A stretch of 64,000 bases of DNA from Eledone cirrhosa (taxonomy: Eukaryota). The position numbers and the translations under genes are program-made. Positions 2,901 to 57,356 of this stretch are shown one piece after another (position 1 is the stretch's first letter; the number at the start of each line of letters is the position of its first letter). The stretch lies in NCBI GenBank assembly GCA_964016885.1, contig OZ024751.1, positions 1,116,001 through 1,180,000 of the forward strand, written 5' to 3'. The notes below the pieces were generated by a model, which saw only the letters and a list, made by a program, of their open reading frames with translations, searched no databases and was not told the origin of the DNA.

Positions 2901-5900
2901 GAATGGGCAAAATTCTTCAGTTTTTGCAACTTTTCCTTGTCCCAGGAGTTTTGTCTTTATTACAATGCAAGCTTAAAGAAGAGTATGAGAGTAAAAATAA
3001 AATTCTGATTGATATCAATATATTTGACCAAAAGGATGATTTCGAAACTTTTCATTATTCTGGCCCCATGTCTGACAAAAATAAGGTAACAGAATTTTTC
3101 TTTCTTTTTCTACGTTTGGTGGCGAATTAGTAGATTCCTCAGAACATCAGATAGAATGATTTGTGATATTTGTTCCAGTTTTCTGTGCTCTAAGGTCAGC
3201 TTTGCCATTCATAATACCAGTTAAATATTGGGGTAATTTCTTCCTCTATATCTCTTTCTCATTTTATCTCTCTCTCTCTCTTGAGACTACCTAAAACCAA
3301 AGAAGCTCACAAAACTGGCAGGTCCAGGGTAAACTACAGGATAAAGTGGGAAGGTTTGATGGATAAGGAAGTCAGGACCAAGTATGCAGATACTATTGCA
3401 TCCAAATTCTGAGAACTCCCTGAGAAAACTGAGGACATTAAGATTGAGTGGTGATTGTTCAGCTCAGCAGTTTCTGCTTCAGCTGTTAAATGCTGTGGGT
3501 GAAAGAGGCATGGTGTGGCACCAGATGGCAAAAGGACCCCGTGTTTCAATCAAGAGGTCAAAGTTGCCATCCGAGCAAAGAACGAGGCCTACAAGCTTGG
3601 CTTGGAAATAAGTCCTCCTTCTTGCACTTGCGGTATAAGCAGGCACGAAAAATTACAACAGCAACAGTAAAGGCGTCCAAAGGAGAACTTTTGGGTTAAG
3701 CTGGAATCCGTCTTCAAATCAACAAATAAAGTGTTCTGACCATCCAACGACTTCGTAATAAGAAGTCCTCCTCCACACCTGCTATTAGGAATGTTTCTGG
3801 GGTTCTCTCCTCTGAGAGGTGCATCTTCACAAGGTGAAGAGAATATTTTGCTGATCTCCTAAATTCGATCACAATAGCATCTTCTGATGTACATGAAGTG
3901 CATCTAGGAGTGGTGACTAATCTCTCAAAGGCTGAGGTCACAAGAGCAGTTAAAGAGCTCAAATGTGGCAAGGCTGCTGGGGAAGATGAAATCCGGCCTG
4001 AGATGTTAAAAGCCTTAATAGAGAAGGTATTCTATGGTTGACTTGTGTATGCCAGGTGGCCTGAATCTCTGGAAGATTAATATTAACTCTTTTAATATCA
4101 AACCATTTGAAATTAACTCTCGTTCTACCACACATAATAGAAGGATAATACACATCATTGTTGTAAATAAATTACTGAATTACTTTAACAGTTGAAGTTG
4201 CAGCTTTTTGTATAAGAGAGAGAGCTGAAAAGCTCCAGGCTTTGGGTAAAAGAAAATACAGGAGGATCAGTTAATTATGATTTTATTCAACATATTCCCC
4301 TCTCAGATTGACACACTTATTGCAGCAGTCCTTCAGTTTTTCTAAGCCCTGTAAAAAGAACTTGGAAGGTTGGGCCTTCAACCAGGCCTCTGTAGCAGCG
4401 ATCACTTCCAAATCGAAGTGAAATTTCATTCCCATGATATTGCTCTATAGTAACCAGTTATGACTGGCTTGAACAGAAAGATGTGAGAGAATTCTGGCCG
4501 GATATGGCCGGTTTAAATGCTAAAAGGTTAAACCTGGCACAGCCCATCTCTTCCCCAAGTCTGCATACAATCAATTTCTTCTAGAGAGAGTGATAGAGAG
4601 AAAGTGAGAAAGTGATATAAAGGAAGAATCAACCCCACTACTGAATTGGTACTTTTTTTAACAACTTCAAAATATATATAAGGCAAAGTTGACCTCTTTG
4701 TATATATACAGGGTAGCCCCAAAGCAACTAGACCATTTTAATTTATAATATACTAGTTCATTCTCCTTTGGAGATACATACACTCACAGAGAACATAGTT
4801 TTTTACACCATCTCACTTCTTTCCATTTACACACACACATGCACACAGACACACATATCTACTGACACAGCTTTGTGCAAAAATAGAAACTCTGTTTGAT
4901 TTTTTTTTTTGCTGTAGAATTTTCACCATCCCACTTCTTTCATTTTAACTCATTCATCTCACAAGTGTGTTTAGTGAGGAATTCAAGGTTTAAGTAGGAG
5001 TCAATTAGGGTTCAGTTCTTAGCCCACTGCTATTCATTGTAGTTCTTCAGTCCATAATAGAGGAGTTTAAAACTGGCTGTCCATGGGGGCCTCTCTATGC
5101 AGATGATTTGGTCCTTATAGCTGAATCCATAAAAGAACTAGAAAATAAGTTCCAACTATAGCAACAGAACTTGGAATCAAAAGGTGTTAGAGTAACCTTA
5201 GCCAAAACTAAAGTGCTGGTAAGTAGGAAAGAAAACAGGACTCTGATTCTCTTAGGGAAGTGGCCCTGCTCAATATGTCAAAAAGGAGTAGGCATAAACT
5301 CCATACAATATACACAAAGTAAACCTTGGGTACATAAGAGATGTGGGATAACAGATAGACTAACAGGAAAGGAAGACTTTGTATGTAGAAGATGCACCGG
5401 GGAAATCAAGGGAAGTGTGCCAGTGATTTAAATCTTTTCAATTCACAGGAAGGATCCATAGAAATGGTTGATAGCTTCTGCTATGAAGGTGACTAAGTTA
5501 GCAGTGGAGGAGGATGTTCAGAGAGCATAATAGCTAGAATAAGGATAAGATGGAAGAGGTTTAAGGATCTACTCCTATTGTTGGCAACAAAAGGTTTCTC
5601 CTTATGTAGAAAAGGATGGCTGTATCATGCCTGTGTGTGAAGTGTGATGCTGCATGACAGTGAAATGGCAGTGATTGCAGAGGAAATGTCTAGACTTGAG
5701 AGCAATGAAGCAAAAATGATTTGTTGGATGTGCAATGTAAATGTGAGAGAAAAACAGAGCTTGGATGAAATGAGAGAGAAACTGGGTTTAAGAGGAGATC
5801 CAAGGTGGTGTGTAGGAGAGAAGACTGCATTGGTATGGGCAAGTGATGTGCATGGATAATGATTGCTGGGTGAAGAAATGCCAGGAAATCCCAATGAAAG

Positions 5901-6110
5901 AAAACCACAGTAGAGGTAGACCAAGTAAAACTTGGGCAGAGGTGGTGAGAGCTGATATCAGATCGCTGAGACTCACAGTGAAGAGGAGATGACATGGAGA
6001 GATGCTATGCTGAAAAGGACCTGTCCAATCCATGTAAGTATGAAAAGGTGGATGAAAAAATGATGATGCAAATATATATATATATATATATATACATATA
6101 TATGTATATA

Positions 6111-6148
<38 letters not shown>

Positions 6149-8232: not shown

Positions 8233-8270
<38 letters not shown>

Positions 8271-11200
8271 GAAGTATTTCGTACGGAAATACTTCATTTA
8301 TATGTATAAAACCACAAACCCTCCATCCTAATTCTACTTTTGAAAAGCATAAGAACTGTGAAACCGGTAAAGAAAACAAATAAATATTTTTAAAAAGACT
8401 CCAGTTGCATTTTCGATTTCATTTTTTTTCTTATATTGGACTGTAGCCATGTTGGGGCACTGTTTTATGAGGTACTAGTGTCACAATACAGGACTGTAGC
8501 TACAGTGGGGGACTGTTGTTTGAGGTACTAGTGTCACAATATAGGACTGTAGCTACAGTGGGGGACTGTTGTTTGAGGTACTAGTGTCACAATATAGGAC
8601 TGTAGCTACAGTGAGGCACTGTTGTATGAGGTACTGGTGTCACAATATAGGACTGTAGCTATTGTGGGGGACTGTTGTATGAGGTACTAGTGTTACAATA
8701 CAGGACTGTAGCTACAGTGGGGGACTGTTGTATGAGGTACTGGTGTCACAATATAGGACTGTAGCTATTGTGGGGGAGTGTAGTATGAGGTACTGGTGTC
8801 ACAATATAGGACTGTAGCTACAGTGGGGGACTGTTTTATGAGGTACTAGTGTCACAATATAGGACTGTAGCTACAGTGGGGGACTGTTGTATGAGGTACT
8901 GGTGTCACAATATAGGATCGTAGCTACAGTGGGGGAGTGTAGTATGAGGTACTAGTTTCACAATATAGGACTGTAGCTACAGTGGGGGACTGTTTTATGA
9001 GGTACTAGTGTCACAATACAGGACTGTAGCTACAGTGGGGGACTGTTGTATGAGGTACTGGTGTCACAATACAGGACTGTAGCTACAGTGGGGGACTGTT
9101 TTATGAGGTACTAGTGTCACAATACAGGACTGTAGCTACAGTGGGGGAGTGTTGTATGAGGTACTGGTGTCACAATACAGGACTGTAGCTACAGTGGGGC
9201 ACTGTTTTATGAGGTACTAGTGTCACAATACAGGACTGTAGCTATTGTGGGGGAGTGTTGTACGAGGTACTAGTGTCACAATATAGGACTGTAGCTACAG
9301 TGGGGGACTGTTTTATGAGGTTCTGGTGTCACAATATAGGACTGTAGCTACAGTGGGGGACTGTTGTATGAGGTACTGGTGTCTCAATACAGGACTGTAG
9401 CTACAGTGGGGGACTGTTGTATGAGGTACTGGTGTCACAATACAAGACTGTAGCTACAGTGGTGGACTGTTGTATGAGGTACTGGTGTCACAATACAGGA
9501 CTGTAGCTACAGTGGGGGACTGTTGTATGAGGTACTGGTGTCACAATACAAGACTGTAGCTACAGTGGTGGACTGTTGTATGAGGTACTGGTGTCACAAT
9601 ATAGGACCGTAGCTACAGTGGGGGACTGTTGTATGAGGTACTAGTGTCACAATATAGGACTGTAGCTACAGTGGGGGAGTGTAGTATGAGGTACTAGTGT
9701 CACAATACAGGACTATCTACAGTGGGGCACTGTTTTATGAGGTACTAGTGTCACAATATAGGACTGTAGCTACAGTGGGGGAGTGTAGTATGAGGTACTA
9801 GTGTCACAATACAAGACTGTAGCTACAGTGGTGGACTGTTGTATGAGGTACTGGTGTCACAATACAGGACTGTAGCTACAGTGGGGCACTGTTTTATGAG
9901 GTACTAGTGTCACAATATAGGACTGTAGCTACAGTGGGGGAGTGTAGTATGAGGTACTAGTTTCACAATATAGGACTGTAGCTACAGTGGGGGACTTTTT
10001 ATGAGGTACTAGTGTCACAATATAGGACTGTAGCTATTGTAGGGGACTGTTGTATGAGGTACTAGTGTCACAATACAGGACTGTCGCTACAGTGGGGGAC
10101 TGTTGTATGAGGTACTAGTGTCACAATATAGGACTGTAGCTACAGTGGGGGACTGTTGTATGAGGTACTAGTGTCACAATATAGGACTAGCTACAGTGGG
10201 GGACTGTTTTATGAGGTACTAGTGTCACAATATAGGACTGTAGCTACAGTGGGGGACTGTCGTATGAGGTACTAGTGTCACAATACAGGATTGTAGCTAC
10301 AGTGGGGGACTGTTTTATGAGGTACTAGTGTCACAATACAGGACTGTAGCTACAGTGGTGGACTGTTGTATGAGGTACTAGTGTCACAATACAGGATTGT
10401 AGCTACAGTGGGGGACTGTTTTATGAGGTACTAGTGTCACAATACAGGACTGTAGCTACAGTGGTGGACTGTTGTATGAGGTACTAGTGTCACAATACAG
10501 GATTGTAGCTACAGTGGGGGACTGTTTTATGAGGTACTAGTGTCACAATACAGGACTGTAGCTACAGTGGGGGACTGTTTTATGAGGTACTAGTGTCACA
10601 ATACAGGACTGTAGCTACAGTAGGGGACTGTTGTATGAGGTACTAGTGTCACAATACATGACTGTAGCTATTGTGGGGGAGTGTTGTATGAGGTACTGGT
10701 GTCACAATACAGGACTGTAGCTACAGTGGGGGACTGTTTTATGAGGTACTAGTGTCACAATATAGGATTGTAGCTACAGTGGGGGACTGTTGTATGAGGT
10801 ACTAGTGTCACAATATAGGACTGTAGCTACAGTGAGGCACTGTTGTATGAGGTACTAATGTCACAATATAGGACAGTAGCTACAGTAGGGGACTGTTTTA
10901 TGAGGTTCTGGTGTCACAATATAGGACTAGCTACAGTGGGGGACTGTTGTATGAGGTACTAGTGTCACAATACAGGACTGTAGCTACAGTGAGGGACTGT
11001 TGTATGAGGTACTAGTGTCACAATACAGGACTGTAGCTACAGTGGGGGACTGTTGTATGAGGTACTGGTGTCACAATACAGGACTGTAGCTATTGTGGGG
11101 GACTGTTGTATGAGGTACTAGTGTCACAATATAGGACTGTAGCTACAGTGGGGGACTGTTTTATGAGGTTCTGGTGTCACAATATAGGACTGTAGCTACA

Positions 11201-14200
11201 GTGAGGGACTGTTGTATGGGGTACTAGTGTCACAATACAGGACTGTAGCTACAGTGGGGGACTGTTGTATGAGGTACTGGTGTCACAATACAAGACTGTA
11301 GCTACAGTGAGGGACTGTTGTATGAGGTACTGGTGTCACAATACAGGACTGTAGCTACAGTGGGGGACTGTTGTATGAGGTACTGGTGTCACAATACAGG
11401 ACTGTAGCTACTGTGGGGGACTGTTGTATGAGGTACTGGTGTCACAATACAGGACTGTAGCTATTGTGTGGGACTGTTTTATGAATGAGAAAGAAAAAAG
11501 TGTAAAGGAAAATCCTTAATGAAACATACAAATTCAATTATTACAGATTCCTCCCAATACTGTTAATGGAACAAATTATATGTTTAAGCTTGGCAAAATA
11601 ACAGAATATGTAAGTATTAAATTCTTGTTCAGTATATCATGTGTGTTTTACATTAGCAATAATATTTTTATATAACAATTATGTAGCTATATAATATTCT
11701 TAGTATTAAATAGCATTGATGTCATGTTTTAGATAGACTGTATGCCATTCAAATCTGACCATAACATCTATGTGTTGTCTTTGGATAGTACTAAAGTCTT
11801 AATACTGATATCTTAGATAGTACTGAAGTCTTAATACTGATATCTTAGATAGTAGTGATGTCTTAGTAGTGATGTCTTAGTAGTGATGTCTTAGTACTGA
11901 TGTCTTAGAAACTAGAGATGTCTTAGTACTGATGTCTTAGAAACTAGCTAGAGATGTCTTAGATAGTACTGATGTCTTAGTACAGTTGTCTTGTAAACCA
12001 GTGATGTCTTAGTATTTATGTCTTAGATAGTAGTGATGTATTAGATAGTACTGATGTCTTAGAAATCAGTGATGTCTTAGATACTAGTGATGTCTAGAAT
12101 CAATGTTTTTAGACAGTATTCATATATTCCACTCTTTCTCTTTTCACAGAATGATACTGAGGAAGGCTTGTTGATGGACGGCTGTCTTGTTTCCGTGAAG
12201 GATGTGCATTTGTTTCTACCAAACACCACAGTAAGTATAGTGACTGCTAGTGAACATATACCAGAATATCTGATTGCTAGTGAACATATACCAGAATATC
12301 TGATTGCTAGTGAACATATACCAGAATATCTGATTGTTAGTGAACATATACCAGAATACCTGATTGCTAGTGAACATATACCAGAATATCTGATTGTTAG
12401 TGAACATATACCAGAATATCTGATTGTTAGTGAACATATACCAGAATACCTGATTGTTAGTGAACATATACCAGAATACCTGATTGTTAGTGAACATACA
12501 ACCGAATATTTGATTGTTAGTGTACACATACCAGAATATTTGATTGTTAGTGAACATACAACAGAATATTTGATTGTTAATGAACATACAACAGAATATT
12601 TGATTGTTAGTGAACATAGAAGAGAATATCTGATTTCTAGTGAACACATACCAGACTATCTGATTGTTAATGAACATATACCAGACTATTTGATTGTTAG
12701 TGAACATACAACAGATTATTTGATTGTTAGTGAACATATACCAGACTATTTGATTGTTAGTGAACATACAACAGATTATTTGATTGCTAGTGAACATACA
12801 ACAGAATATTTGATTGTTAATGAACATATACCAGACTATCTGATCGTTAGTGAACATAGAACAGAATATTTGATTGTTAGTGAACATATACCAGACTATC
12901 TGATTGTTAGTGAACATATACCAGACTATTTGATTGTTAGTGAACATACAACAGAATATTTGATTGTTAGTGAACATATACCAGACTATCTGATTGTTAG
13001 TGAACATATACCAGACTATTTGATTGTTAGTGAACATATACCAGACTATTTGATTGTTAGTGAACATATACCAGACTATTTGATTGTTAGTGAACATACA
13101 ACAGAATATCTGATTGCTAGCAATTGAAAGAATAACAACCTCTCCCTTCACTTGTCTTCCATTTTCTCATCGCCCCTATTGCTGCCTCACATCTGGTCAA
13201 CTTCACCTTGCTGCCCCACATCTGGTCAACTTCATCTTGCTGCCCCACATCTAGTCAACTTCACCTTGCTGCCCCACATCTGGTCAACTTCATCTTGCTG
13301 CCCCACATCTAGTCAACTTCACCTTGCTGCCCCACATCTGGTCAACTTCATCTTGCTGCCCCACATCTAGTCAACTTCACCTTGCTGCCCCACATCTAGT
13401 CAACTTCATCTTGCTGCCTCACATCTGGTCAACTTCATCTTGCTGCCCCACATCTGGTCAACTTCATCTTGCTGCCCCACATCTAGTCAACTTCATCTTG
13501 CTGCCCCACACTAGTCAACTTCACCTTGCTGCCCCACATCTAGTCAACTTCACCTTGCTGCCCCACATCTAGTCAACTTCATCTTGCTGCCCCACATCTA
13601 GTCAACTTCACCTTGCTGCCCCACATCTGGTCAACTTCATCTTGCTGCCCCACATCTAGTCAACTTCACCTTGCTGCCCCACATCTAGTCAACTTCATCT
13701 TGCTGCCCCACATCTAGTCAACTTCATCTTGCTGCCCCACATCTGGTCAACTTCATCTTGCTGCCCCACATCTGGTCAACTTCACCTTGCTGCCCCACAT
13801 CTAGTCAACTTCATCTTGCTGCCCCACATCTAGTCAACTTCACCTTGCTGCCCCACATCTAGTCAACTTCACCTTGCTGCCCCACATCTAGTCAACTTCA
13901 CCTTGCTGCCCCACATCTAGTCAACTTCACCTTGCTGCCCCACATCTGGTCAACTTCATCTTGCTGCCCCACATCTAGTCAACTTCATCTTGCTGCCCCA
14001 CATCTGGTCAACTTCATCTTGCTGCCCCACATCTGGTCAACTTCATCTTGCTGCCCCACATCTGGTCAACTTCATCTTGCTGCCCCACATCTGGTCAGCT
14101 TCACCTTGCTGCCCCACATCTAGTCAACTTCATCTTGCTGCCTCACATCTGGTCAACTTCATCTTGCTGCCCCACATCTGGTCAACTTCACCTTGCTTCC

Positions 14201-22196: not shown

Positions 22197-22238
<42 letters not shown>

Positions 22239-22529
22239 AGAGAGAGAGAGAGAGAGTGAGAGGAAGTGGTAGTTCCACAACACCATTTTGGATCATCAGC
22301 TCAGTTTAAACCGAGCTGATGATCCTTTGAGGTGAAACAAATTGTTCTCAGAAATGGTGTACGAATTGTTGTGGAACTGCTTCTACCAAAATCATCCCAT
22401 GGACTGAGTGCTCTGCTACTGCTGATGTAACCCACCAGTGTTCTGCTACTATATATATATATGAAAAGATTCAGGACACCGATAGCTGAGCTCCAGCCGT
22501 TTTGACAGCTGGTTCTTAACCACACCCTA

Positions 22530-22565
<36 letters not shown>

Positions 22566-33099: not shown

Positions 33100-33158
<59 letters not shown>

Positions 33159-33437: not shown

Positions 33438-33469
<32 letters not shown>

Positions 33470-33489
33470 ATATACATATCCATATACAA

Positions 33490-33581
<92 letters not shown>

Positions 33582-38482: not shown

Positions 38483-38543
<61 letters not shown>

Positions 38544-47500: not shown

Positions 47501-50500
47501 AAGAGATTGGCTAGTTGGTTTTCATCGACGCCTAGAGTCTCCCCAAGGACGTCGTTGCTCTTTCCCTCCACTAACCCTCTATAGAAAGCCAAGGTGGAGT
47601 TTCCAGCGATTGTATTGCTTGACTGGTCGAAGTTTGTAAGTGACTGAAGACATTCCAGTCTCCAAGCACTTCCTCTCGGTCTTCGCTTAACCCAGGACTG
47701 CAGCTCCACCAAGAAGACAAGCTGGGGAAACATGTGTCTAGCAAAGGACGACCACACCTGATCACCGTCGAGGAAGAGGTGGAGATGTCGTAGCCTGAGC
47801 ACATGTCTGCGCATCATCAGCCATGGCATGCCCAGCCCTCCGCGTAGCGCGTGTTGACAGCAGATAGACCGCCTGACCATCAGAGCATGTTCCTGCCACA
47901 AAAAGCGAAAGAGCAAGTTAGGCGAGGCTTAGGACAAGGCACGACGGTCAGGTCGTAGTAGATGACGGACGCGATGTACGCATTCGCCACCTCTGCTCGA
48001 CCTTTCAGGGATAGCTTCCTCTCAGTCCATTTCTGGGTGAGAGAAGCCACCTTGCTCGTGACCTCCCAGTTTTTGTCCGTCTGGAGGTCGGACTGAACCA
48101 GACCCTAGCAATTTACCCGGTCCGTCGGTCCAGCGCCCGATGACGCTGTTGGACGGCATGGACCTGCCTCTCCAGGTGTCGAGTTGCAGGCCTACTGAAT
48201 TTTCCTGGTTGATTATTGCTCCTGTCACTACCTTGTATTCTCTTAGTGTAGTGCCAATCGCCTCGATGTGTTTGGCATTCGACACCACTATGGTGACGTC
48301 GTCTGCATATGCTGACATGGTTCTTCTGCATTCTAGTTTGCGTGGGATCCCCCTCAATGTCTCCAGTTTGTGAAATAATGGCTCGAAAGTCAATATGTAC
48401 AACAAGGACGAGAGGGGACATCCTTGGCAGATAGAATGCATGATGTTGAATGGTTCCGAGAGGTGACCATTCACTCTCACCACAGAGCAGATGTCGCTGT
48501 GCATGGCAGCAATCCAGCCTCTGAAGACAGGGCCAAAGCCAGCTGCTCTTAGGACTGCTGCCAGATAATGATGGTCGACCCTATCGAAAGCTTTTGACTG
48601 ATCTAAATTGATCAAAGACCCACCTATGCAGGTTCCATAGCTACCCTCTCTACGATGTATCACATGAAGTGGAGGTTGTCGTGGATGGATCTATTTGGAA
48701 CGACAAGCGCCAACCTCTTTGCTAGTACCTTAGCCAAAATCTTGAAGTCTGTGTTTAGCAGAGTTATGGGCCTGAAATTTTCTGTTATCCCCCTTGTTCA
48801 GATCTTTTCTTAGCAGCGCCACCGCTCCTCGGCTCACAGAACTGGGAATTCTCCCATTCTGCTGCCAGTTGCAGTAGATGTTCGCCAAGAGGTCTTCGAA
48901 CAAGTCTGGCATATGTATGTAAAATTCGTAGGGCAGACCATCCAAACCAGGTGATTTACCCATTGTGCAGCTAGTCATTGCCTCCCGTACTTCAGCAGCT
49001 GTTATCAGCCTTTCGCAACACTTCGCCTCAGTGGCCGAGAACCGCAGCAGTCTGTCGAGGTAGGCACTGAAGGCCATTCAGCGATACGGCCCGCCACTGC
49101 CCCTGAACAGCTGATCAAAATGCTGCTGAAAAGCCGCACACATCTACCCAGGATCAAGGAGCATGCGCCCGTCATGGTTCACCAAAGACCGGATCGTGGC
49201 TTTGTTGCCACAACGCGCCTCCGCCACTCGGGCCCATTGAACGGCTTTCGCCCTCTCGTGTCTGAGACACGCACCTAGCTCTGACAACGCAGCCTTTGTG
49301 CTTAGCATTGAAAAATTGGACGAGAGATAATTTCGCCGCAAGCAGGTCGGTCATGATGCCTTTACTAAGCGCCTCATCTAATTTGCTAACTAGATTTCCT
49401 TCTGCTATATTTTTCTCTGTTACTAACGCCTTACTAAACCTAATGGGCTCTATTCTAATCGCTCTTTTGAGGGAAAACCACATTTGTTGTTGGCGATGGC
49501 CCCCGTCAACGCCCGCTTAACTAATTTGCTAATCCAGTCTCTGTAAGCCTTGCGCGCTGTTAACGATGCGTTTAGTTTCCAGTAGCTGGGTCCCTGTCTA
49601 TGAAATCTATCTAAGTCAACCACACACATCACGAATTTGTGGTCCGTGTAGACAACTATCTTTTATTGTGGACAGCCTATGCTAGACCTATCTATTTCCC
49701 TACAAAATACCCTATCTAGATATGATCTGGATGACCTGATGCGGTTTGTCCAAGTCCACATTGGCACATTCGGGAAATCCAACCGGTACCTGTCAGACAG
49801 GAAAACAAGTGAGAGGGGAAAAGTACAAAAATTACTTGGGGCTCTTTTTTAGGAAGGGAGTGGGTGATCCATCCCTCCGACCAGTGGCTGGTTTCTCCGT
49901 GAATATTATTTTAGTGATGTTCCCTCGGTAGTCTCCAATTGATGTGGAGAACATTTTTTTTAATGTCATGTAATTTTTTTGTGTGATTTGTATTATTTTT
50001 ATGTGTGTGAGGTGTGCAATTTTGGTGGACTGTACGTAATTTGTTTCTGTGGTGTTGAATGTAATTTAAAAGCTTTGTGTTGTCTGCTGTTGGGGTGTTG
50101 GTGCTTTCTGTGTTTTCTGTGGTGTTGTTGGAGGTGACGATGGGGTAGATGCTAATGGTGGTGGTGTTGGTGGTGGTGATGGTGCTGGTGTAGGTGGTTG
50201 TGGGGGTGTGGCTGTTGATGGTGGTGGAGGTGGGGTAGTTTTCATTTTTTTGGAGGGGGGGGGGGTTCTTTCTTCCTCTTTTTTTTTGAGGACGAAGGTA
50301 GGGAGTTCTTCCTTTTTTTGCTGGGATAGTTTTCCATTCTTCGGCCTCATCGCATTCCTTGTCCGATTTAGCTATATCAGGAAGGGGCATGCTTTCCATT
50401 GGTTCTGTGGGTGGTGGAAGAGATGGTGCTTTTGTTGTTGTGGATAGTGATTTCTTTTCTGCCACTGTGTTCTAGGTTTCTTTGTCCACTCCAGTCGCGG

Positions 50501-52456
50501 GGCACGGCGTGGGGAGAAGGGGCGGGTGCATGCCCGTTTTGGTGAGTTTGGTGCAGAATGCTTTAAGGTGCGTCTTGTCACTGCATCCATGACACCTTGG
50601 GCGCCTACCTTCGACAGTCACGGGTAGATGGCTGCCGTCGTCAAGGTCTATTACATCGGGGATGGCCTCGATGCTCTCATGGTTTGCTTGGATGATTAGC
50701 TCCAACCCCGACCCTGTCCAATTTTCCTGTCTTATTCGCGTTGAGCATAGTTGTTGAATCCTCAACGTCAGCGAGGACGGCCGCCGTCAACCACGCCATC
50801 TCCACTAAGGGCGGAACCTAGGCCACTCGAACCCTCACGACTCTCTGGCCGCAGTATCTGGGCATCATTATGATTTTGTCACTGCGGAGTGGCGCAATGG
50901 AGTGTGCTCTGGCTTCTTCTGGTGTAGCGAAGAGCACATCCACACTGCCATACCTCGATCCCCGGGCTATGTATGTTTTCTGTGCTCAGACGGCACCCAT
51001 AGCTCTTTGGACCTGTGACACCGTTGCGCGTTCGATTCGACACGATTTTGTTCCGATCGTGTGATAACTGACCAAACACAAAAGCTTGTTTCTTATTATA
51101 TCAGCTGGGCGGGTGAGACTTACCCTGTGTCCCGTCTTTTTAACCAAGACCTTTGCTTGTTTTATCTCTTCGTTAGTGATGTGTACTTGCTCAAAATTGT
51201 TTGTCGCTTTAGCGAAAGACGTGTTTGTTTTGATTTGTGTTGACTCTCACTAGTTTTGCCTTTGTTGTTGTTGCCGTCGTTGGTGTTTTTGTTTGTTCTT
51301 TTTTCCTCTGTGTTGCTGCTGTTATAGTTGTTGCTCCTTGGCTTCTTTATGGCTGTTGCTGTTGCTGTTGTTATTGTTGTTATTGGGGTGGCGGTGGTGT
51401 TTGACTTTTCTAACATAAGGGAAGTTTTTGTTGTAATTTGCACTACTGCTGCTACTGTTCCAGTGGCTGCTGTTGCTGTTGTCACCACCACTATCACTGT
51501 CGATGCTGCTGCTGTTTCTCTTGTTTTTTACTTTGCCTTGTGATTGGATGGAATCGGCTGTTCCACCCTCTGAACAACCCGCTGTTCCTCCCCGTGGACA
51601 ATTTTTTTTGTCCGCCATGTTTTTTTAAAAAACAAAATTTGGGGGGTACGATTGTAAATAAATACAAATTCAGCCCTCAAGGGCGCGAGATACAGTTAAA
51701 AAACCACCTCCTTTGAAAGGGTTCTTTAACTACACACCGATGTAAAAAATAACTATATAGAAATTTCGATAACTCATAAAAATTCAACTAAATTACTCTG
51801 CCATAATTACAGCCGTCTTGGAATAATAATAATAATTGTTTTTTTATTGGCCACAGATGGCACAGCATGGGACAGGATGATATAAAGTGGGTTTTGGCCA
51901 TGTAAAAAGGTTGTAACAAGAAGATAGAAATGTGTAAAAACAAATTAAAAAATTCAAGCAACAAAAATTCCCCAAAAAGAGGGAAACCTCCAGAGGTCAC
52001 TCTTGGCGAAGACCACACAAGAGACCATGGCCACCCTGACCACCAAGGCAAGCGTCCTCTCTCAGTTCCCCCACTCAGTCTACAGGCGCATACTCAGAGA
52101 AGGCCCGTTCACTCGGACCAGACTTGCCACTTTCACCCACCTTTCAGCAAACTTACTAGAAGACAGCACTTGCCTGATTTTCTTCTTCAAGTTTCAATTG
52201 AAGAAGTTAATCAGGGATTCGCTGGAGAGGAAAGTGTCCGTCTTTAATCCTTTCAACCTTGTCCACCACACAATCTATTTCTCCATTGCAACCAGGTAGA
52301 TGAAATCTGCCTGCCTTTCCTCCTCCTTAAAGGAGGATGGCGGGTCTATCTGCACAATGGACTCAGTCGATAACTGGATACGTCCTACATGCGACAGCAA
52401 CTGTTCGACATAATCCAACAAGTCAGTAATGCTGATAATAATAATTATTTCTACTG

Positions 52457-52511
<55 letters not shown>

Positions 52512-55500
52512 GCAATTGAGCAAGAATAAAGACCTGGAGATAGAGATTGGAAAAATGTGGAAGTTGAGAACTAAAATAATACCAGTGGTTGTAGGCGCTC
52601 TAAAGGGTCTGATGATTTCTTATCCCAAATCCCAGGAAATCCGCGTATAGAAGAAATACAAAACATAGGACTAATGGGCACAGCCCATATACTAAGGAAG
52701 ATTCTGTCAATATAAATACATCACAAGTGTTCTTTCTTGAACATGGTGGACCTTGTTATCTCTTGAGGTCACTGGTTGTGAGTTGGTGAACATAAAGCAA
52801 GATAAAAGAAAAAATAATAATGCTAATGATAATCATAATTACTATTATTATTGTGCAGGGTGAAAGACTGAACTTGTTAGCTACAAAGGAGGACTACAAC
52901 GTCACAGTGAATAGGCAAACATGCACGATTGTTTCCTTAAGCATCAACCAGCTTGAGTGCCGTTGGGATAGCGGAGATGTCGATTATGAAGCAGATTACA
53001 ATATCATGGTAAGACAATAAGATCAAACATATATAGGTTCAAATCCCATGGTCAATAATATATATATATATTTATATATATATATATATATATATGAGAC
53101 ATGGGCCTTGTGTGCAGAGGATCTGCGCAGACTGGAGAGGAACGAAGCTTGCATGCTCCGTCGGATGTGTCATAGTAATATACGTGAACGGCAAAGCATA
53201 AATGAACTAAGTGAGAAATTAGGAATAAGATGCTGTTTACTCAAGAGAAGACTACGTTGGTATGGTCACGTGATGCGCATGAAAGACGACAGCTGCATAA
53301 AAAAGTGCAAAGCGATCAAAATAGATGGAAGTTATGGAGTAGGTAGACCCAGAAAAACCTGGGACGATTTGATAAATTCCGACCTTACACACTTACACCT
53401 CTCCAAGACAATGTCACTGGACCGAGATCTTTGGCACTACGCAGTAATACAGAAGACCTGCCTTGCCTAAGTACAAAGCGAAACCTACAGTCAGTAGGCA
53501 CCTCCTAACCAAAAATACACCCCATCCCACTAACCCCCACCCCCATCTACACCACCCCTTTCTCTGTAAAGTTATGTTGGTGCCACAACATCCAGTCCTA
53601 AATAAATGAGGTCGTGTAGGTGTCAGGACAAAAAAACACAGTCCACGCTGTAATATGGCCGTGTAGGTAACATGGTAAAAACCTCCCAGTCCACACTGTA
53701 AATGTGGTTGGTGTTAGGAAGGGCATCCAGCCGTAGAAAACCCGCCAGACAGTCCTATACGAGCAAGACAGCCAATCTTGCTTAACGTGGGACAATTCCT
53801 GTCTAAACCCATGCTAGCGTGGAAGATAGACGTTAAACGATGATGATGATGATGATGATATATAGTAAAACACTTTCACACCCACCCACATATGGCGGAT
53901 TAAACAGGGATTTCGAGACTAGAAATAGATAGTAACTTAACCAATACCATGCTAGTCGCTCTGCAACGATCAATTGACTCTCTGAAACGATTGTAAAACA
54001 ATGAACTAACTATCTTAGCAATATATCTGTATTAGCAATATATATATATATATATATCAGTGGAAAGCAGGGCATGCAGTCTAATCGTCATGGCGGAATG
54101 TGGGGCTGTGCAGCCTTATGCCCCCTCCAAATTCCCTCTAAATGACCCTCCCGGTCAAAGCCGCATGTAGTGTTATCTTGTGTGTGTGTGTGTGTTATCT
54201 TTTTATGTGTCTACAATTTAGTAAGCAGTCAAAATTCTGCTTGCTTCAACCGACGCAATTGATCAACTCAAGATTCTATAACGCATGCACTACATGCGTT
54301 GCATGCACGGATCCTTCGCCCCTGATATATATATATATTCATTGTTTTGCGATCGTTTCAGAGGGTCGATTGATTGTTGAAGATCGACTAGCATGGTATT
54401 AGTTAAGTTACTATCTATTTCTAATCTTGAAATCCCTGTTTAATCCACCATATGTGGGTGTGTGTGAAAGTGTTTTATTATATATATCATATATATATAT
54501 ATATTATTGACTGACGTAAGAAAGAGTACTCAATACTGAAGTAGCATTTAAATATTCTTTATTATGGCTATACTGGAGTTTTACCCATGCACAGGTAAAA
54601 CTTAGTCATAATAAAGGATATATATATATATACACAGACAGACACATATGGTAATGTAATAATAAATGTGAGGACTAAAACCCGTAGAGCAAATATTTAT
54701 TATAAGTACAGATTAAAATTTAAGCAAAGAATCGCTACTTTTACCTTTTACAGGATCTTCTGAAATACACACACACACACACATATACATATACATATAT
54801 ATATATATATATATATTATATATACCCATGCATATTGAGATATGGCCTGTCTTTATACATTGAAACATATGTAGAATGTTGTAAGTCTTGATTACTCTCT
54901 CTCAATTTACTAACTATATATATATATGTATATGTGTATGTATGTGTATAATATATATGTATATATATTATATATACATATATATAAATAAAGTGAAATG
55001 ACAGGAGGCCAAATATGCTGAATTTCCTTAATTTTTAATTATTGTAAACACTATGCACATTACAGTAGCCAGGTTGTGTAATAACGCGGTGATCTCATCA
55101 GATGTAAATTGCGTAATATATATATAATCTATCACAATTTCATTAATGTTTGCTTTACGTTTCTCTGTTTCACAGATCACTCTTCAATGTCTACCATCTC
55201 CCCTTGAAGGACAACCAATACTAGCGATGAAATCAACATTACATATCATTGCAATATTCCTTATTGGTATATTGATCATATTCATAGTCAGTTTGGTGTT
55301 CATCAAATATAGGGAGATCCAGAAAAAAATATATCCAATCGACTCTTATCTTTTGGAAAATGGTAAAGGATTATAATTTTATTTTTATTGGGGTGGCGGA
55401 TAATATTTATTTCATTTAAGTTCTTCCTCTCGAAGGTGATGGAGCAGTATACTGAATGCTTTACAATAGATAGAGCCATTGTACAAACGGCTGCACTACA

Positions 55501-57356
55501 GTGTTAGGTCCTCAATGTTCCGAGTTCAATTCCCATTACGTTTCATAAGCTAAATACCATTAATTTATTTGGGTCGATTAATTCGACTAAACCGCCCCAC
55601 TACATACCTGTGGACTTGCTTTAATGTAAAATGATGAACTCTCCGTTGAGAATCACATATGAGTGTCCAACTGTTTGATCAATGAAACAACCTTTTCATT
55701 GCATTGGCATGTAAAGTGGCTGAATATTCCACAGTATCGTGTAACATTAACGTAATCCTTAGGTAGAATCATGTGACATCCATATGGCATTGTGGCAGCC
55801 TTCGAATAACATGCTACATGTTACAATATCCATACATTTATATTTCAGCGCAAAAGTGTTCAACTGATGTAACGGAAATTGATGTTCCATTCCAGAAAAT
55901 AACCCAATATATCGAACGAATATTATTGATAGAAAAACCACGTGGATACAAGAAAAATCCTGGAGGAAAAGTATGTTGTTTTCTTCCTAAAGGTTTGCAT
56001 GAAAGTTTTTGAGGGCTTGGTTGAAAATATAAATACAGGTCATGTTAGTATATACATGGACTATCTTAGACACTGTGACCCCGAATGGACGAGCAATACT
56101 GTCACCAGTGTTATTCTATTACCGACAGCTGATGGCCATGGAGATGATTTGTCCTGTTCATGTAACCATCTTTGAGGTGTCTGTGTCTACACATCTACGT
56201 TTTTTGTTCGTCTAACCTTCCCCGTTCCTGTATTTTTTTTACTGTATCTGTTGCCATATTTGAGTACACACACACTTATATATAAAATTATAAGTTTGGG
56301 GAACAGTTACATAAAATTTATCCAGTTTTTCTTCTTAGTCCATAGAAGTCAACTAAGTTTAAAATGTAACTTTGAAGAAATAACAGATATAAGTTATCAA
56401 TATTCCTTTATGAGGAACAGTCAGATAAAATATTTCTTCTTAGTCCGTAGAAATTTACTAAACAATTAATCATTTAAATGGAGCTAATTCTAAGATGTAA
56501 GTTTGAACAAAAAATAGGTTGTGAGTTCAATTCTCAGACCGGGTGATGTGTTGTTTCCTATCATTCCACTGCAAAGTGGTTGTGGAGGTGCCACGGAAAA
56601 AAGCACCCAGCCCACACTGTAAAGTGGACGTGTAGGTGCCACGGTAAAAAAGCACCCAGCATTCACTGTAAATGAGGTTGGTGTTAGGAAGGGCATCCAG
56701 CTGTAGAAATCAAGCCAAATCAGTTCCTGTATGAGCAAGCCAAGGTCAGCCGACCGGACACTGCTCACAACAGGACAACCCGTCTAACCCATGCTAGCGT
56801 GGAAGAACGGACGTAAAACGGTGATGATGATGATGATGATGATTACCAAAACATCTCCTAGTCCCGACTGTCGACAGTTTCGCACGTACTTTGTGGAAAT
56901 GTCTAATCATTGCATTATCCATGAGGCTCCGAGCTTATCAAGAGACACACACACATATGTATGTGTGAGTGTGTGTGTGTGAGAGTGTGTGTGTACGTCT
57001 TTCTCTCTCTCTCTCTCTGTATATGTATGAATGTTTTTCTTTGAAAGATGTTAGATTGAAAACTCGAATGTGTTCAATTTTGATCTTTCTTTTATTATAT
57101 ATATATCTTATATACCTATTAGGTTTTTAACATGGTAGTCGATATGGTCTTTAAAGTGATGCTTTGTTATTTTATTTACGTCATCAATGGATTATTTATC
57201 TTCAAATGTCTTTTGCTTTGTTTTTTTTTTGCAGAAATTACCATTTGATATTCAAGGGAAACTCGGCCATTTTGAAGTTTTGTTAAAAAATAAGTTTTTT
57301 ATATTGAATGTTATAAAAGCAATGGAGAGGAAAAAAAACATTTGTTACAATGAAAA
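2901..57356 (+). CDS. Spliced gene, 15 coding exons in window, 3' incomplete: divergent plexin-like type I membrane receptor
   Basis: Fifteen AG/GT-flanked exons with matching phases give 1769 coding nt without a stop. Signal peptide, IPT-like motifs, TM helix, then [15 protein letters not shown] and [22 protein letters not shown], which resemble recalled plexin IPFLDYRTYAMRVLF and LKLFAQLINNKVFLLSFIRTLE. Confidence 0.85.
2903..3085 (+). CDS. Plexin-like exon 1 (signal peptide [18 protein letters not shown]...SDKNK)
   Basis: Acceptor ttcttttctttctatttcag|GA at 2900/2901, ATG 2903, hydrophobic N-terminus, donor AAG|gtaac at 3086, phase 0. The acceptor implies an upstream exon. Confidence 0.75.
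3285..4075 (+). mobile_element. Decayed RTE-type LINE internal fragment
   Basis: [28 protein letters not shown] upstream-of-RT motif near 3930-4020. Confidence 0.7.
4083..4531. mobile_element. Putative piggyBac-like MITE with an inserted fragment; its right end recurs at about 1245-1328
   Basis: TTAA-bounded ends (ttaactcttt ... aaaaggttaa); about 80 bp similar to 1245-1328, which ends aaagggttaa. Confidence 0.4.
4960..6068 (+). mobile_element. RTE LINE 3' half, decayed
   Basis: [15 protein letters not shown], Cys-rich insert, 3' (GAT) tail. Confidence 0.85.
6146..7050 (+). mobile_element. Penelope-like element 3' fragment with GIY-YIG endonuclease (ORF 6229-6762)
   Basis: VYSIRC...C...[16 protein letters not shown]...HQH...H...R.ITEAINI...LNRKHE; preceded by (TA)n. 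Confidence 0.9.
6961..7003 (+). ncRNA. Minimal type I hammerhead ribozyme motif (U4C variant) in the Penelope 3' region
   Basis: gtca-CCGAAGA-g-gtcaca(gaatg)tgtgac-GAA-AG(aa)CT-T-tgac: stems I, II and III all pair. Confidence 0.6.
7234..7338. repeat. Fold-back palindrome, about 50-bp arms
   Basis: tattaggattggtgctctgaaatagcgatgtatacatgaatgtatgtata and its near-perfect reverse complement. Confidence 0.9.
8438..11484. repeat. 53-bp minisatellite, about 57 copies
   Basis: Unit ggactgtagctacagtgggggactgttgtatgaggtactagtgtcacaatata; starts at 8438, 8491, 8544. Confidence 0.97.
11547..11609 (+). CDS. Plexin-like exon 2 ([21 protein letters not shown])
   Basis: ttattacag| ... |gtaagt, 63 nt, phase 0-0, open frame. 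Confidence 0.7.
11780..12110. repeat. Degenerate short tandem repeat (gatgtcttagatagtact-like, 14-18 bp)
   Basis: Recurrent gatgtcttag core. Confidence 0.85.
12150..12230 (+). CDS. Plexin-like exon 3 ([27 protein letters not shown])
   Basis: ctctttctcttttcacag| ... |gtaagt, 81 nt, phase 0-0. Confidence 0.8.
12240..13120. repeat. 30-bp minisatellite, about 29 copies
   Basis: Unit tgattgttagtgaacatataccagaatatc. Confidence 0.97.
13179..14397. repeat. 29-bp minisatellite, about 42 copies
   Basis: Unit cacatctggtcaacttcatcttgctgccc. Confidence 0.97.
14644..14730 (+). CDS. Plexin-like exon 4 ([29 protein letters not shown])
   Basis: cattttcttctag| ... AAG|gttagt, 87 nt, phase 0-0. Confidence 0.75.
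14770..15091. mobile_element. hAT-type MITE with 8-bp target site duplication
   Basis: TIRs cagatgttctcaaa / tttgagaacctctg; aaatagag at both 14762-14769 and 15092-15099. Confidence 0.85.
15105..15505 (+). mobile_element. Two tandem tRNA-derived SINEs
   Basis: A-box tggcagtatcgg, B-box gagttcaaatcc, body gaggttagctttgc...gataaaataaagtaccag...tactgggg; similar copies elsewhere in window. Confidence 0.8.
15535..19047. repeat. 61-bp minisatellite, about 57 copies
   Basis: Unit atgctggtaacaacaccttaaaggaaattagtcaatcatatctatcccctgtacttcagcc. Confidence 0.97.
19167..19476 (-). mobile_element. tRNA-derived SINE, second family
   Basis: Minus strand reads tagtggttagagcatcaggcttacaatcacaaggttgtgagttcgattctc (A/B boxes); related to 24400-24530 and 58187-58430. 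Confidence 0.75.
20183..20450. mobile_element. Unclassified interspersed repeat; inverted homolog at 27271-27487
   Basis: tggtgtccttggacctag...gggagttcggctcccctgtattcggacct resembles the reverse complement of aggtcctaacacaaaggaaccaaactccca...ctagggccaagaacacca. Confidence 0.6.
20617..20721 (+). CDS. Plexin-like exon 5 ([35 protein letters not shown])
   Basis: Weak acceptor gttttattcaaaaaag|, strong donor AAG|gtgagt, 105 nt, phase 0-0. Confidence 0.65.
21282..21686 (-). mobile_element. 3' fragment of the R4-like LINE family at 60385-63960
   Basis: Strongly similar to 60388-60785. Confidence 0.85.
21940..21983 (+). CDS. Plexin-like exon 6 ([14 protein letters not shown])
   Basis: Long polypyrimidine tract ttcttccag| ... 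AAG|gtgag, 44 nt, phase 0-2. Confidence 0.8.
22311..22351 (+). ncRNA. Minimal hammerhead ribozyme motif in a short fold-back element (22261-22450)
   Basis: gag-CTGATGA-t-cct(ttg)agg-t-GAA-AC(aaatt)GT-T-ctc. Confidence 0.6.
22836..23095 (-). mobile_element. RTE-like 3'-end repeat; copies at about 25140-25340, 26310-26495 and 27665-27970
   Basis: Shared ggggtagaccccgagcaagatggttggataa...ggaataagtgggcg motifs (GRPRARW.D). Confidence 0.7.
23186..23219 (+). CDS. Plexin-like exon 7 ([12 protein letters not shown])
   Basis: ttgttatttctag| ... AAG|gtgagt, 34 nt, phase 2-0; restores the frame after exon 6. Confidence 0.8.
23675..23810. repeat. (CAC/CCA)n low-complexity tract
   Basis: Direct reading. 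Confidence 0.9.
23972..24135 (+). CDS. Plexin-like exon 8 ([13 protein letters not shown]...RKCIKTTPI)
   Basis: tatttcaatag| ... AA|gtaagt, 164 nt, phase 0-2. Confidence 0.75.
24175..24368 (+). mobile_element. tRNA-derived SINE
   Basis: ggcggtggattggcagtatcgg...gagttcaaatcc; very similar to 57596-57810. Confidence 0.8.
24888..25040 (+). CDS. Plexin-like exon 9 (NMTIQCLLP...[20 protein letters not shown]; IPT boundary)
   Basis: ttttgtag| ... TG|gtaagt, 153 nt, phase 2-2; [10 protein letters not shown] is a typical IPT/TIG junction. Confidence 0.85.
25047..25138. repeat. (CTT)n(CCT)n microsatellite directly after the exon 9 donor
   Basis: Direct reading. Confidence 0.95.
26845..27268 (+). 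mobile_element. Two tandem tRNA-derived SINEs
   Basis: Same motifs and junction as 15105-15505. Confidence 0.8.
27537..27606 (+). CDS. Plexin-like exon 10 ([24 protein letters not shown])
   Basis: ttctatcatgtttcag| ... GGG|gtaaga, 70 nt, phase 2-0; [10 protein letters not shown] fits the IPT T.LTITG.NF motif. Confidence 0.85.
28310..28968. repeat. Degenerate minisatellite (cactgcctcactgtctcattatagagactgtcc core)
   Basis: Recurrent cattatagagactgtcc and cactg subunits. Confidence 0.9.
29038..29828. repeat. G-rich minisatellite taatgtggtaggtatagat(ggt)n gggg, about 38-60 bp units
   Basis: Direct reading; variable GGT count per unit. Confidence 0.95.
29898..30101 (+). CDS. Plexin-like exon 11 (LFNCSIYP...TIQCQL...FNYTIYDYP...TVVVY)
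   Basis: tttatgtttcag| ... |gtaagt, 204 nt, phase 0-0, IPT Cys pair. Confidence 0.85.
30695..31615 (+). mobile_element. RTE LINE 3' end with 3' UTR and (GAT)n tail
   Basis: KGRLYDAC...HGSETWAL...GRPRKTW; near-identical family copy at 53096-53858. Confidence 0.85.
31909..31973 (-). ncRNA. Mirror-image hammerhead ribozyme on the left arm
   Basis: Reverse complement of 32111-32175. Confidence 0.75.
32111..32175 (+). ncRNA. Type I hammerhead ribozyme, predicted cleavage after AUA at 32167
   Basis: tattttat-CTGATGA-aag(c)acacca[loop]tggtgt(c)ctt-GAA-ATA(tg)TAT-A-atgaaata; intact core, 8-bp stem I. Confidence 0.75.
33274..33408. repeat. Shorter palindrome of the same family (55-bp arms) in (TA)n
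   Basis: Shares aaatggaaactatatttataaaaccatatttattt...tttcaagg with 31879-31932. Confidence 0.9.
33628..37125 (-). mobile_element. Near full-length decayed RTE LINE (APE endonuclease + RT)
   Basis: ATLNVGTL...CLQEVRW...AYAP...AGDFNGH; [12 protein letters not shown]; HQGSVLSP...YADD; several frameshifts; (GAT)n tail. Confidence 0.92.
37670..38475 (-). mobile_element. Probable L1/Tx1 5'/ORF1 fragment with (AAC)n expansion
   Basis: Thr/Asn-rich low-complexity frame resembling the ORF1 N-terminus at 51160-51620. Confidence 0.45.
38544..38832 (+). mobile_element. 5'-truncated R4/Dong copy inside (AAT)n
   Basis: Near-identical to 43203-43465, flanked by (AAT)n on both sides. Confidence 0.9.
39520..43465 (+). 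mobile_element. Near-intact R4/Dong-type non-LTR retrotransposon (RT + CCHC + restriction-like endonuclease)
   Basis: ORFs 39680-40714 and 40912-43329: [45 protein letters not shown]...IDMSVP...KLSKY. Confidence 0.92.
43466..46755 (-). mobile_element. L1/Tx1-clade LINE copy A (ORF1 end, ORF2 from 46047 with APE and RT, frameshifted)
   Basis: [56 protein letters not shown]. Confidence 0.9.
46756..51760 (-). mobile_element. L1/Tx1-clade LINE copy B (ORF1 with CCHC knuckle, ORF2 with internal deletion near 49800)
   Basis: [14 protein letters not shown] (CX2CX4HX4C); RT motifs at 48022-49077; homologous to copy A. Confidence 0.88.
51838..52432 (-). mobile_element. L1/Tx1 copy C, 3' end with AATAAA and A-rich tail
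   Basis: Homologous to 46760-47318; minus strand ends gccaataaaaaaac. Confidence 0.85.
52511..52820 (+). mobile_element. 5'-truncated R4/Dong copy inside (AAT)n
   Basis: [16 protein letters not shown]; homologous to 43115-43465. Confidence 0.9.
52859..53008 (+). CDS. Plexin-like exon 12 ([34 protein letters not shown]...; membrane-proximal IPT)
   Basis: ttattgtgcag| ... ATG|gtaaga, 150 nt, phase 0-0; G..LN...Y.V.V....C.I..LS.NQL.C resembles the last plexin IPT. Confidence 0.85.
53096..53858 (+). mobile_element. RTE LINE 3' end, same family as 30695-31615
   Basis: [19 protein letters not shown]...GRPRKTW, shared 3' UTR. Confidence 0.85.
53861..54482. repeat. Inverted repeat (about 145-bp arms) enclosing a possible MITE at 54058-54324
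   Basis: 53861-54005 is approximately the reverse complement of 54338-54482; inner element begins cagtgg and ends cccctg between TA runs. Confidence 0.85.
55176..55362 (+). CDS. Plexin-like exon 13 (TM helix [22 protein letters not shown] followed by KYR)
   Basis: ttctctgtttcacag| ... G|gtaaag, 187 nt, phase 0-1; about 22 hydrophobic residues then basic stop-transfer residues. Confidence 0.9.
55849..55970 (+). CDS. Plexin-like exon 14 ([27 protein letters not shown]...)
   Basis: ttatatttcag| ... |gtatgt, 122 nt, phase 1-0; plexin IPF..Y..Y..R.L motif. Confidence 0.85.
57235..57356 (+). CDS. Plexin-like exon 15 ([34 protein letters not shown]...; start of GAP region)
   Basis: (t)n gcag| ... 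AA|gtaagt, 122 nt, phase 0-2; F..LL.NK.F...I..E plexin motif. Confidence 0.85.

Follow-up and report, generated by a model that had tools for sequence, protein, structure and literature searches.

In Eledone cirrhosa, a 64,000-nucleotide stretch of contig OZ024751.1 (positions 1,116,001 to 1,180,000, in our coordinates G000:C11:1,116,001-1,180,000, within a 3.0-Gb genome and with the repeat-rich intron landscape of an animal; hereafter the window) carries the first 15 of the 28 coding exons of what is almost certainly a coleoid cephalopod gene, intact and spliced, that derives from a plexin of the B type. Its descent makes it a plexin paralogue, and because its product falls short of a canonical plexin in the Sema domain, the PSI domains and the catalytic set, we regard it as plexin-derived rather than as a canonical plexin. 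On balance we favour the view that it encodes a coleoid pseudo-plexin, devoid of a full Sema domain and of the catalytic residues of the GTPase-activating protein (GAP) region, that likely acts as a non-enzymatic scaffold receptor and not as a semaphorin-triggered Rap GAP. Throughout, it is compared with five full-length relatives (P0001, Argonauta hians; P0002, Octopus sinensis; P0003-P0005, decapodiform-type), with plexin-B2 as a control (P0006), and with the two canonical plexins of the same genome, on contigs C15 and C106, which we take from sequence likeness to be A-like and B-like, respectively.

Splice sites were judged by eye and the exons then joined by script, and the chain was rebuilt independently from the raw sequence. 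It runs from the first ATG at 2903 to 57356 and consists of 15 exons and 589 codons with no stops, with GT-AG borders and compatible phases at all introns. The 589-amino-acid (aa) product has a hydrophobic N-terminus, called a signal peptide on hydropathy and homology to the N-termini of relatives, and a single transmembrane (TM) helix at residues 469-489. About 175 aa separate the signal peptide from a domain equivalent to canonical IPT4, and the first 199 aa hold four Cys and no CxWC motif. The layout in the preliminary description (signal peptide, Cys-poor region, IPT domains, TM, plexin cytoplasm) was reproduced by the rebuild, as was its ectodomain of roughly 465 aa, signal peptide included. 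Its count of two to three IPT-like domains becomes three, namely IPT4-6 of a canonical plexin, and its end point of 57356 is that of the last exon in the window, the gene running on through 13 more coding exons, placed using relatives, to a stop at G000:C11:1,252,095. The full protein of about 1,036 aa (1,026 aa plus a 10-aa mini-exon) is thus encoded by 28 coding exons without a stop; relative to the O. sinensis protein it is about 25 aa shorter in the N-terminal region and 16 aa shorter before IPT5, with no small exon found that would convincingly make up the difference. Scanned singly against Pfam, the exons (10 were scanned) gave TIG for exon 12 and Plexin_cytopl for exon 15 (E 0.024), both under the cut-offs. 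The exons within the window are as follows, with shuffle counts referring to the exon-anchored comparison described further below.

Exon 1, 2901-3085, plus strand: signal peptide and about 40 aa; ATG at 2903; homologous to the Argonauta and O. sinensis N-termini.
Exon 2, 11547-11609, plus strand: aa 62-82, Cys-poor N-terminal region; placed by frame, splice sites and colinearity with relatives.
Exon 3, 12150-12230, plus strand: aa 83-109, probable Sema remnant; resembles by eye the C106 plexin's second Sema exon.
Exon 4, 14644-14730, plus strand: aa 110-138, probable late Sema-blade remnant; phase-0 end like the canonical exon; 7 of 2000 shuffles reach its score.
Exon 5, 20617-20721, plus strand: aa 139-173, probably what remains of the last Sema blade; phase 0-0; on its own not significant (378 of 2000).
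Exon 6, 21940-21983, plus strand: aa 174-188, probable vestige of PSI1, carrying a single Cys; phase 0-2; not significant by itself (406 of 2000).
Exon 7, 23186-23219, plus strand: aa 188-199, probable PSI1 vestige with one Cys; phase 2-0; directly joins IPT4.
Exon 8, 23972-24135, plus strand: IPT4-equivalent, first half.
Exon 9, 24888-25040, plus strand: second half of IPT4 and start of IPT5.
Exon 10, 27537-27606, plus strand: IPT5.
Exon 11, 29898-30101, plus strand: end of IPT5 and start of IPT6.
Exon 12, 52859-53008, plus strand: IPT6; TIG match under cut-off (E 0.0014); in spliced contig.
Exon 13, 55176-55362, plus strand: TM helix (aa 469-489) and shortened juxtamembrane segment; in spliced contig.
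Exon 14, 55849-55970, plus strand: end of the juxtamembrane segment and start of GAP homology; in spliced contig; 82.5% to P0002.
Exon 15, 57235-57356, plus strand: GAP-homology region; in spliced contig; the rest of the pseudo-GAP and the RBD, a domain for binding Rho GTPases, lie in the 13 exons beyond the window.

The gene has relatives of the same short layout (960-1,092 aa). A search with exon 15 among 1.84 billion representatives returned a single match, at 92% identity, to the 1,092-aa Argonauta hians protein GAB1605053.1, named 'plexin-B2-like'; the cytoplasmic part of that protein in turn found six proteins among 7,994 scored candidates, namely itself, Octopus sinensis XP_029646225.1 (which clusters with O. 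vulgaris CAI9734224.1), three unnamed proteins and Xenopus plexin-B2. The three decapodiform-type proteins, of 970-992 aa, stand on contigs of 3.2-3.4 kb, which we infer to be transcript contigs. The cluster of P0004 contains a Sepia pharaonis fragment, the best match of which in the E. cirrhosa genome is this locus (E 0.15). Plexin_cytopl matches the five relatives at E 6.9e-26 to 2.6e-31, with PF08337 over its cut-off in all five and PF20170 in four (P0001 falling just under), and the cytoplasm has the split RasGAP fold with an RBD insert that is found in canonical plexins. In a nine-row tree, midpoint-rooted for drawing only and with partial rows for the two canonical plexins of this genome, the window protein and P0001-P0005 form one clade (100/100), divided into octopod and decapodiform-type members and set off by a long branch from three canonical plexins. 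The proposal of a lineage-specific mini-plexin is supported for coleoid cephalopods, beyond which the gene may extend. Exon 11 alone found no relative among seven candidates, and a search with words from the first 500 residues of P0001 found only P0001 itself; the ectodomain is too divergent for either result to be evidence of absence. Two queries for close paralogues each gave one match, both to this locus, with a sensitivity that very distant copies could escape, and a genome search with the Pfam plexin model returned the two canonical genes only, missing this one.

Splicing was seen directly at both ends of the chain. Four sequencing runs of one study (X1-X4) match the stretch, none of them on record as RNA. 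Contig 25 of X4 (1,182 nt) joins exons 12-15 base for base in four abutting pieces, whereas contigs of X1-X3 cross the same introns unspliced, and since X4 is spliced where the other runs read through, these junctions are not due to chance. The contig continues for 570 nt upstream of exon 12, which fits, in length only, exons 11, 10 and 9 and most of exon 8 (591 nt). A second X4 contig (151 nt) spans 2900-3035, ending within exon 1, and carries 15 extra letters in front; their single occurrence in the 464 kb examined lies 192 kb upstream and is followed by a GTGAGT donor. A short 5' exon with its donor at G000:C11:926,645 is thus spliced to exon 1. This exon holds an in-frame TGA before the junction and no in-frame ATG after it, so that 2903 is the start in this transcript and the transcript has no 5' Sema exons. 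The intervening 192-kb intron is made up of a 148.5-kb satellite array and mobile-element fragments. Two points weigh against our reading of the gene here: the RNA-type support comes from one run of one study, not recorded as RNA, at a contig depth of 2-7, and the junctions of exons 1-12 are based on open frame, phase and colinearity with orthologues, not on direct transcript reads. As separate observations, the 5' exon (L032, G000:C11:926,600-926,645) holds a five-codon out-of-frame upstream open reading frame, and the start of the O. sinensis models lies 13 codons further upstream, perhaps in the same 5' exon.

None of the evidence points to a full Sema domain. At E<=1, neither Sema (PF01403) nor PSI matches P0001-P0005, in which Plexin_cytopl is readily found, and the control plexin-B2 matches both (1.8e-23 for PF01403); CxWC is absent from all six family ectodomains and occurs twice in the control. 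Six Sema matches were found in the genome, none of them on the contig of this gene. A canonical-plexin query over the 464 kb gave one weak cytoplasmic match and no Sema exon, a search that is insensitive for so divergent a gene, and the same query detects the Sema exon of the C106 gene at 7e-37. In 10 introns scanned for extra exons, including all the long ones of the N-terminal region, the only candidates were repeat-derived or unmatched. The earlier claim that the protein lacks a full Sema domain is thus borne out, with no Sema exons found upstream or between exons, a fixed 5' end, and no Sema or PSI in the relatives; its other claim, that the cytoplasmic exons match plexins, is confirmed by the Plexin_cytopl matches. 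The short ectodomain might still be an artefact of missed Sema exons or misassembly, or the gene a decaying pseudogene, as junctions 1-11 were not seen in RNA and a canonical plexin barely detects by tblastn even the cytoplasmic exons of this locus, such that a very divergent Sema exon could escape. We consider this explanation hardly credible and already largely refuted by the 5' splice to an exon with an in-frame stop, the satellite and mobile-element content of the 192-kb intron (148.5 kb of it satellite), the failure to find fitting exons in the scanned N-terminal introns, the equally short proteins in RefSeq, GenBank and transcript contigs, and the 28 stop-free exons.

What remains of the ectodomain is principally an IPT stalk which, with its membrane-proximal IPT domains followed by one TM helix, is arranged as in canonical plexins. 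Colinearity between a family profile and plexin-B2 is confined to the stretch that starts at residue 899 and reaches the end (IPT4, IPT5, IPT6, TM and cytoplasm; E 2.5e-33). In a model of the O. sinensis ectodomain built from an eight-row alignment, the last two IPT domains reach a predicted local distance difference test score (pLDDT) of about 80 and match the IPT tandems of MET and plexins (Foldseek 1.2e-6; Z 8.6-8.8 and root-mean-square deviation 3.5-4.9 over 132-169 residues); the first of the three, the IPT4-equivalent, is modelled at low confidence, and residues 1-284 stay under 50. Structure prediction therefore supports the last two IPT domains and leaves the N-terminal region below confident pLDDT; a single-sequence fold of the Argonauta protein gave a mean pLDDT of 34. 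N-glycosylation sequons number 2.0-4.3 per 100 aa in the family ectodomains versus 1.2 in the control. The Argonauta orthologue has, at residues ~340-385, a Thr-rich, mucin-like insertion inside IPT5 that the other members do not have.

The region in front of the stalk, described earlier as Cys-poor, is indeed so, and its sequence suggests that it is probably the worn-down end of a Sema propeller with a vestige of PSI1 rather than a new domain. The end phases of exons 4-7 (0, 0, 2 and 0) are those of the C106 exons that encode the last part of Sema and PSI1, and in an exon-anchored comparison of three octopod with two canonical proteins only 6 of 2,000 shuffles reach the observed score, mainly through exon 4. 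A language-model neighbour search with the N-terminal part of the O. sinensis protein gave Sema/PSI proteins in each of the 10 best rows, scoring up to 0.84, which we treat as a lead only. Several results weigh against a Sema origin. The exon-anchored Sema likeness ranks 25th of 1,075 in a sliding control, and the test was designed after the likeness had been seen; free local alignment, hidden Markov model and profile-profile comparisons of the region with Sema are not significant; and in unanchored tests of 18 pairings, one gave z 3.0 and two gave 2.3-2.6 against IPT1-3 instead. Whatever its origin, a remnant of about 150 aa is too short for a seven-blade propeller of 500 aa. The same exon-anchored similarity and language-model neighbours could be taken to mean that the remnant folds as a partial propeller which binds semaphorin or oligomerises, making the protein a non-signalling semaphorin sink. 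We find this very improbable, given that the remnant is only ~150 of ~480 aa, is 11-27% identical between members, is shorter still in the decapodiform-type ones and is modelled at a pLDDT under 50, and that a sink would have no need of so conserved a cytoplasm.

Intron positions and colinear sequence lead us to infer that the gene derives from the B-like plexin lineage. Four introns differ between the C15 and C106 genes in the region compared, and this gene agrees with C106 at all four; from IPT4 onward most other intron positions and phases are common to it and both canonical genes. The positions just before the second GAP half differ from those of C106, and the nine-row tree does not resolve the parent plexin. 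A duplication of a B-like plexin before the octopod-decapodiform split, which is some 270-300 million years old, may have been followed by an in-frame deletion of the IPT1-IPT3 exons and by decay of the Sema propeller to the ~150-aa remnant; with the canonical IPT4 exon beginning in phase 0, removal of the IPT1-IPT3 block would leave the frame intact. A Met chimera was considered, MET being the best match of the IPT part, and rejected since the introns are colinear with those of a B-like plexin from IPT4 into the cytoplasm.

The cytoplasm is well conserved in the family and altered where plexins act. In the parts of PMC3787391 on which we draw, Arg711 is the arginine finger, Arg1001, Asn1005 and Asn1009 are switch-II contacts, Gln1032, Pro1050, Asn1052 and Lys1053 make contact with switch I, and the active plexin dimer has the juxtamembrane helix at its core. 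We placed Arg711 at the first Arg of the LRRT motif from chain positions in 4M8N and 4M8M and the construct limits, assuming N-terminal tag residues. Following the GAP arginines into the downstream exons, as the preliminary description had in view, we find the finger replaced in all six family proteins (Leu in the window protein and P0003, Ser in P0001 and P0002, Trp in P0004 and P0005) and Arg1001 changed to Gln in five. Asn1005 is Gln in all six and Asn1009 is His or Glu in all six, Gln1032 is Leu in the window protein, and the Pro-x-Asn-Lys of the activation segment is absent from the family alignment. By this sequence test the full catalytic set (finger, Arg1001/Asn1005/Asn1009 and activation segment) is kept in none of the six. 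The distance from the TM to a conserved proline motif is 30-40 aa versus 50 in canonical plexins, the juxtamembrane segment falling 10-20 aa short of its canonical counterpart, which it does not resemble in sequence. At the Trp1807 position of the RBD and in the loop that follows, the sequence has changed as it has in Plexin-C1, and the Leu1815 position stays Leu or Ile; the Plexin-C1 RBD, with a non-Trp residue and a short loop at the Rnd1 site, is non-binding according to the portion of PMC3138255 available to us. Every known plexin interface thus appears altered. Identity of the window protein to the other two octopods is nevertheless 74-86% in GAP-N, 57-59% in the RBD and 69-76% in GAP-C, as against 17-53% in four ectodomain blocks.

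From these replacements we predict, with good confidence, that GAP activity has been lost. Several points weigh against that prediction or the contrast around it: the identification of the finger with the first Arg depends on our own numbering of two PDB constructs; the octopods retain one Arg of the canonical pair, the second, and shifting the register by one residue could bring it to the finger position; P0003 keeps an Arg at the 1001 position; and the contrast in identity between ectodomain and cytoplasm was drawn without canonical cephalopod plexins as a control. Some of these facts would suit a receptor that, having no autoinhibiting Sema domain, is a ligand-independent or atypical GAP using the second Arg as its finger, perhaps on a GTPase other than Rap, or one that traps Rap-GTP without hydrolysing it. 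Deletion of Sema makes plexin-A1 constitutively active (PMC8350011, in the sections accessible to us), GAP-N is the best-conserved part of the protein, and the retained Arg of the pair (Arg634, equated with the second canonical Arg by ungapped alignment) is invariant in three octopods at an exon junction, an intron splitting its codon as one splits the second Arg in C106. The decapodiform-type members, however, have Ser at this position and no Arg at either, and the residues that hold Rap switch I and II (Arg1001, Asn1005, Asn1009, Gln1032 and the activation segment) are changed or absent. We therefore judge an atypical GAP improbable, and the loss of its GAP residues makes it unlikely that the protein is a plexin active without ligand.

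The contacts between semaphorin and plexin involve the Sema domains of both partners (PMC10084454, as far as the part at hand describes them), and for this reason we expect no semaphorin binding here. If the protein neither binds semaphorin nor acts as a Rap GAP, the conservation of its cytoplasm calls for another reason, the simplest being a partner bound on a new surface. We suspect that the three-IPT stalk, fast-changing and heavily N-glycosylated, meets a partner other than semaphorin at the cell surface, and that the conserved GAP/RBD-fold cytoplasm would recruit its own partner via a surface distinct from the canonical sites for Rap, Rho or dimerisation; we give the scaffold role itself about an even chance. 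More tentatively, and with rather less confidence, the gene may be a re-used receptor that has given up its head and its Rap-GAP chemistry and combines a rapidly diversifying, glycosylated ectodomain, as in immune or recognition receptors, with a conserved pseudo-GAP scaffold signalling by a plexin output that is so far undescribed. Alternatively, the protein may be a decoy or modulator that heterodimerises with the canonical B-like plexin through its IPT4-6 stalk, TM or cytoplasm and so dampens or modulates semaphorin signals. Plexin-A4 engineered to lack Sema pairs strongly with wild-type plexin-A2 (PMC8350011), the plexin Sema domain contacts C-terminal IPT domains of the kind kept here within its ring (PMC10084454), and both canonical plexins are present in the genome. 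Against this, the PSI2-IPT2 stalk used in that pairing (PMC8350011) is missing here, as are the activation segment and the greater part of the juxtamembrane helix, on which the active dimer is built, and the ectodomain evolves much faster than would be expected of a surface in contact with a conserved plexin. A decoy is therefore unlikely in our estimate, if a little less so than an atypical GAP, and the scaffold receptor stays our preferred reading.

Among known systems, the closest are the B-like plexins, or invertebrate Plexin-2 (the C106 gene, vertebrate Plexin-B2), with which the protein shares IPT4-IPT5-IPT6, the TM, the split RasGAP fold with its RBD insert and most introns; Plexin-B2 cytoplasm is also the best PDB sequence match of P0001 (E 6.9e-23). 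It differs from them in having no full Sema, CxWC PSI or IPT1-3, in an identity of only ~22%, in its changed catalytic and Rap-binding residues and in its short juxtamembrane segment. Unlike plexin-B2 (P0006), it does not end in a VTDL-type C-terminal motif, a motif with a PDZ role. Plexin-C1, the shortest canonical plexin, resembles it in its shortened ectodomain as well as in the non-Trp residue and short loop at the Rnd1 site. Met and Met-LP receptor tyrosine kinases likewise have a plexin-derived truncated ectodomain, and the family ectodomain profile is best on the MET IPT (E 1.2e-14), with MET ranked first by Foldseek; Met, however, keeps Sema, PSI and kinase, whereas this protein has a plexin cytoplasm, and no kinase family is among the Pfam matches of P0001-P0005. 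The engineered delta-Sema plexin-A1 and A4 similarly have no Sema head (PMC8350011) but keep their stalk and an intact GAP and become constitutively active, whereas here the GAP is degenerate and the deletion natural and old. The 'plexin-B2-like' entries XP_029646225.1, GAB1605053.1 and CAI9734224.1 are orthologues of equal layout, whose automatic names say nothing of the missing Sema or the changed GAP.

The plexin domain layout is stated to be conserved across all clades with only minor exceptions (PMC6374515, PMC10084454, in the parts available). Both surveys set out from Sema-containing proteins, a design by which a Sema-less paralogue would go unnoticed; PMC6374515 gives two plexins in Aplysia and, in the sections examined, does not mention Octopus. 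The sponge plexins with truncated intracellular domains described in PMC6374515 represent the opposite loss, and the available portions of PMC8011033 and PMC9815951 hold nothing similar. We found no description of the gene in a literature consulted mostly without subscription journals and supplements, where an optic-lobe atlas and a paper on an engineered construct came up instead, and cephalopod genome or single-cell gene tables may list it. Among animals, in which this receptor layout is reported to be fixed, the gene is an exception. Its retention in both main coleoid lineages without Sema and GAP residues implies that selection can act on the plexin cytoplasmic fold for a function other than Rap hydrolysis, and makes the gene's product a natural separation-of-function protein for finding a non-Rap plexin role, as well as a candidate cephalopod-specific surface receptor now hidden under the 'plexin-B2-like' label. 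For the plexin specialist, the surprising part, which goes beyond the preliminary description, is the joint loss of GAP residues and Sema in a coleoid-wide gene.

Several features of the introns were noted in passing. The satellite of the 5' intron (G000:C11:947,587-1,096,137, L034-L049) repeats a 52-bp unit about 2,868 times (93% match); just upstream of it stands a second satellite of equal period, 3.2 kb long, and the array sits within an intron that is spliced out in X4. In the window, large intronic minisatellites adjoin small ectodomain exons at 8438-11484 (53 bp), 13179-14397 (29 bp), 15535-19044 (61 bp) and 29038-29828 (38 bp). Another, of 30 bp, begins 10 bases past the exon 3 donor, where the frame of exon 3 stays open for 348 codons (12081-13124, plus strand); intron retention after exon 3 would give a secreted product with a tail of 10-residue repeats. 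The 22.7-kb intron 11 contains, at 39680-43326 on the plus strand, a non-long-terminal-repeat (non-LTR) retroelement with an 811-aa reverse-transcriptase-like frame and, at 43346-51700 on the minus strand, two broken copies of another non-LTR element, both labelled by eye. Elsewhere in the genome we noticed an intronless gene, presumably Rap2-like (L086, G000:C9:52,321,977-52,322,462) and two neighbouring genes, presumably RhoA-like (L092 and L093, G000:C14:30.22-30.23 Mb).

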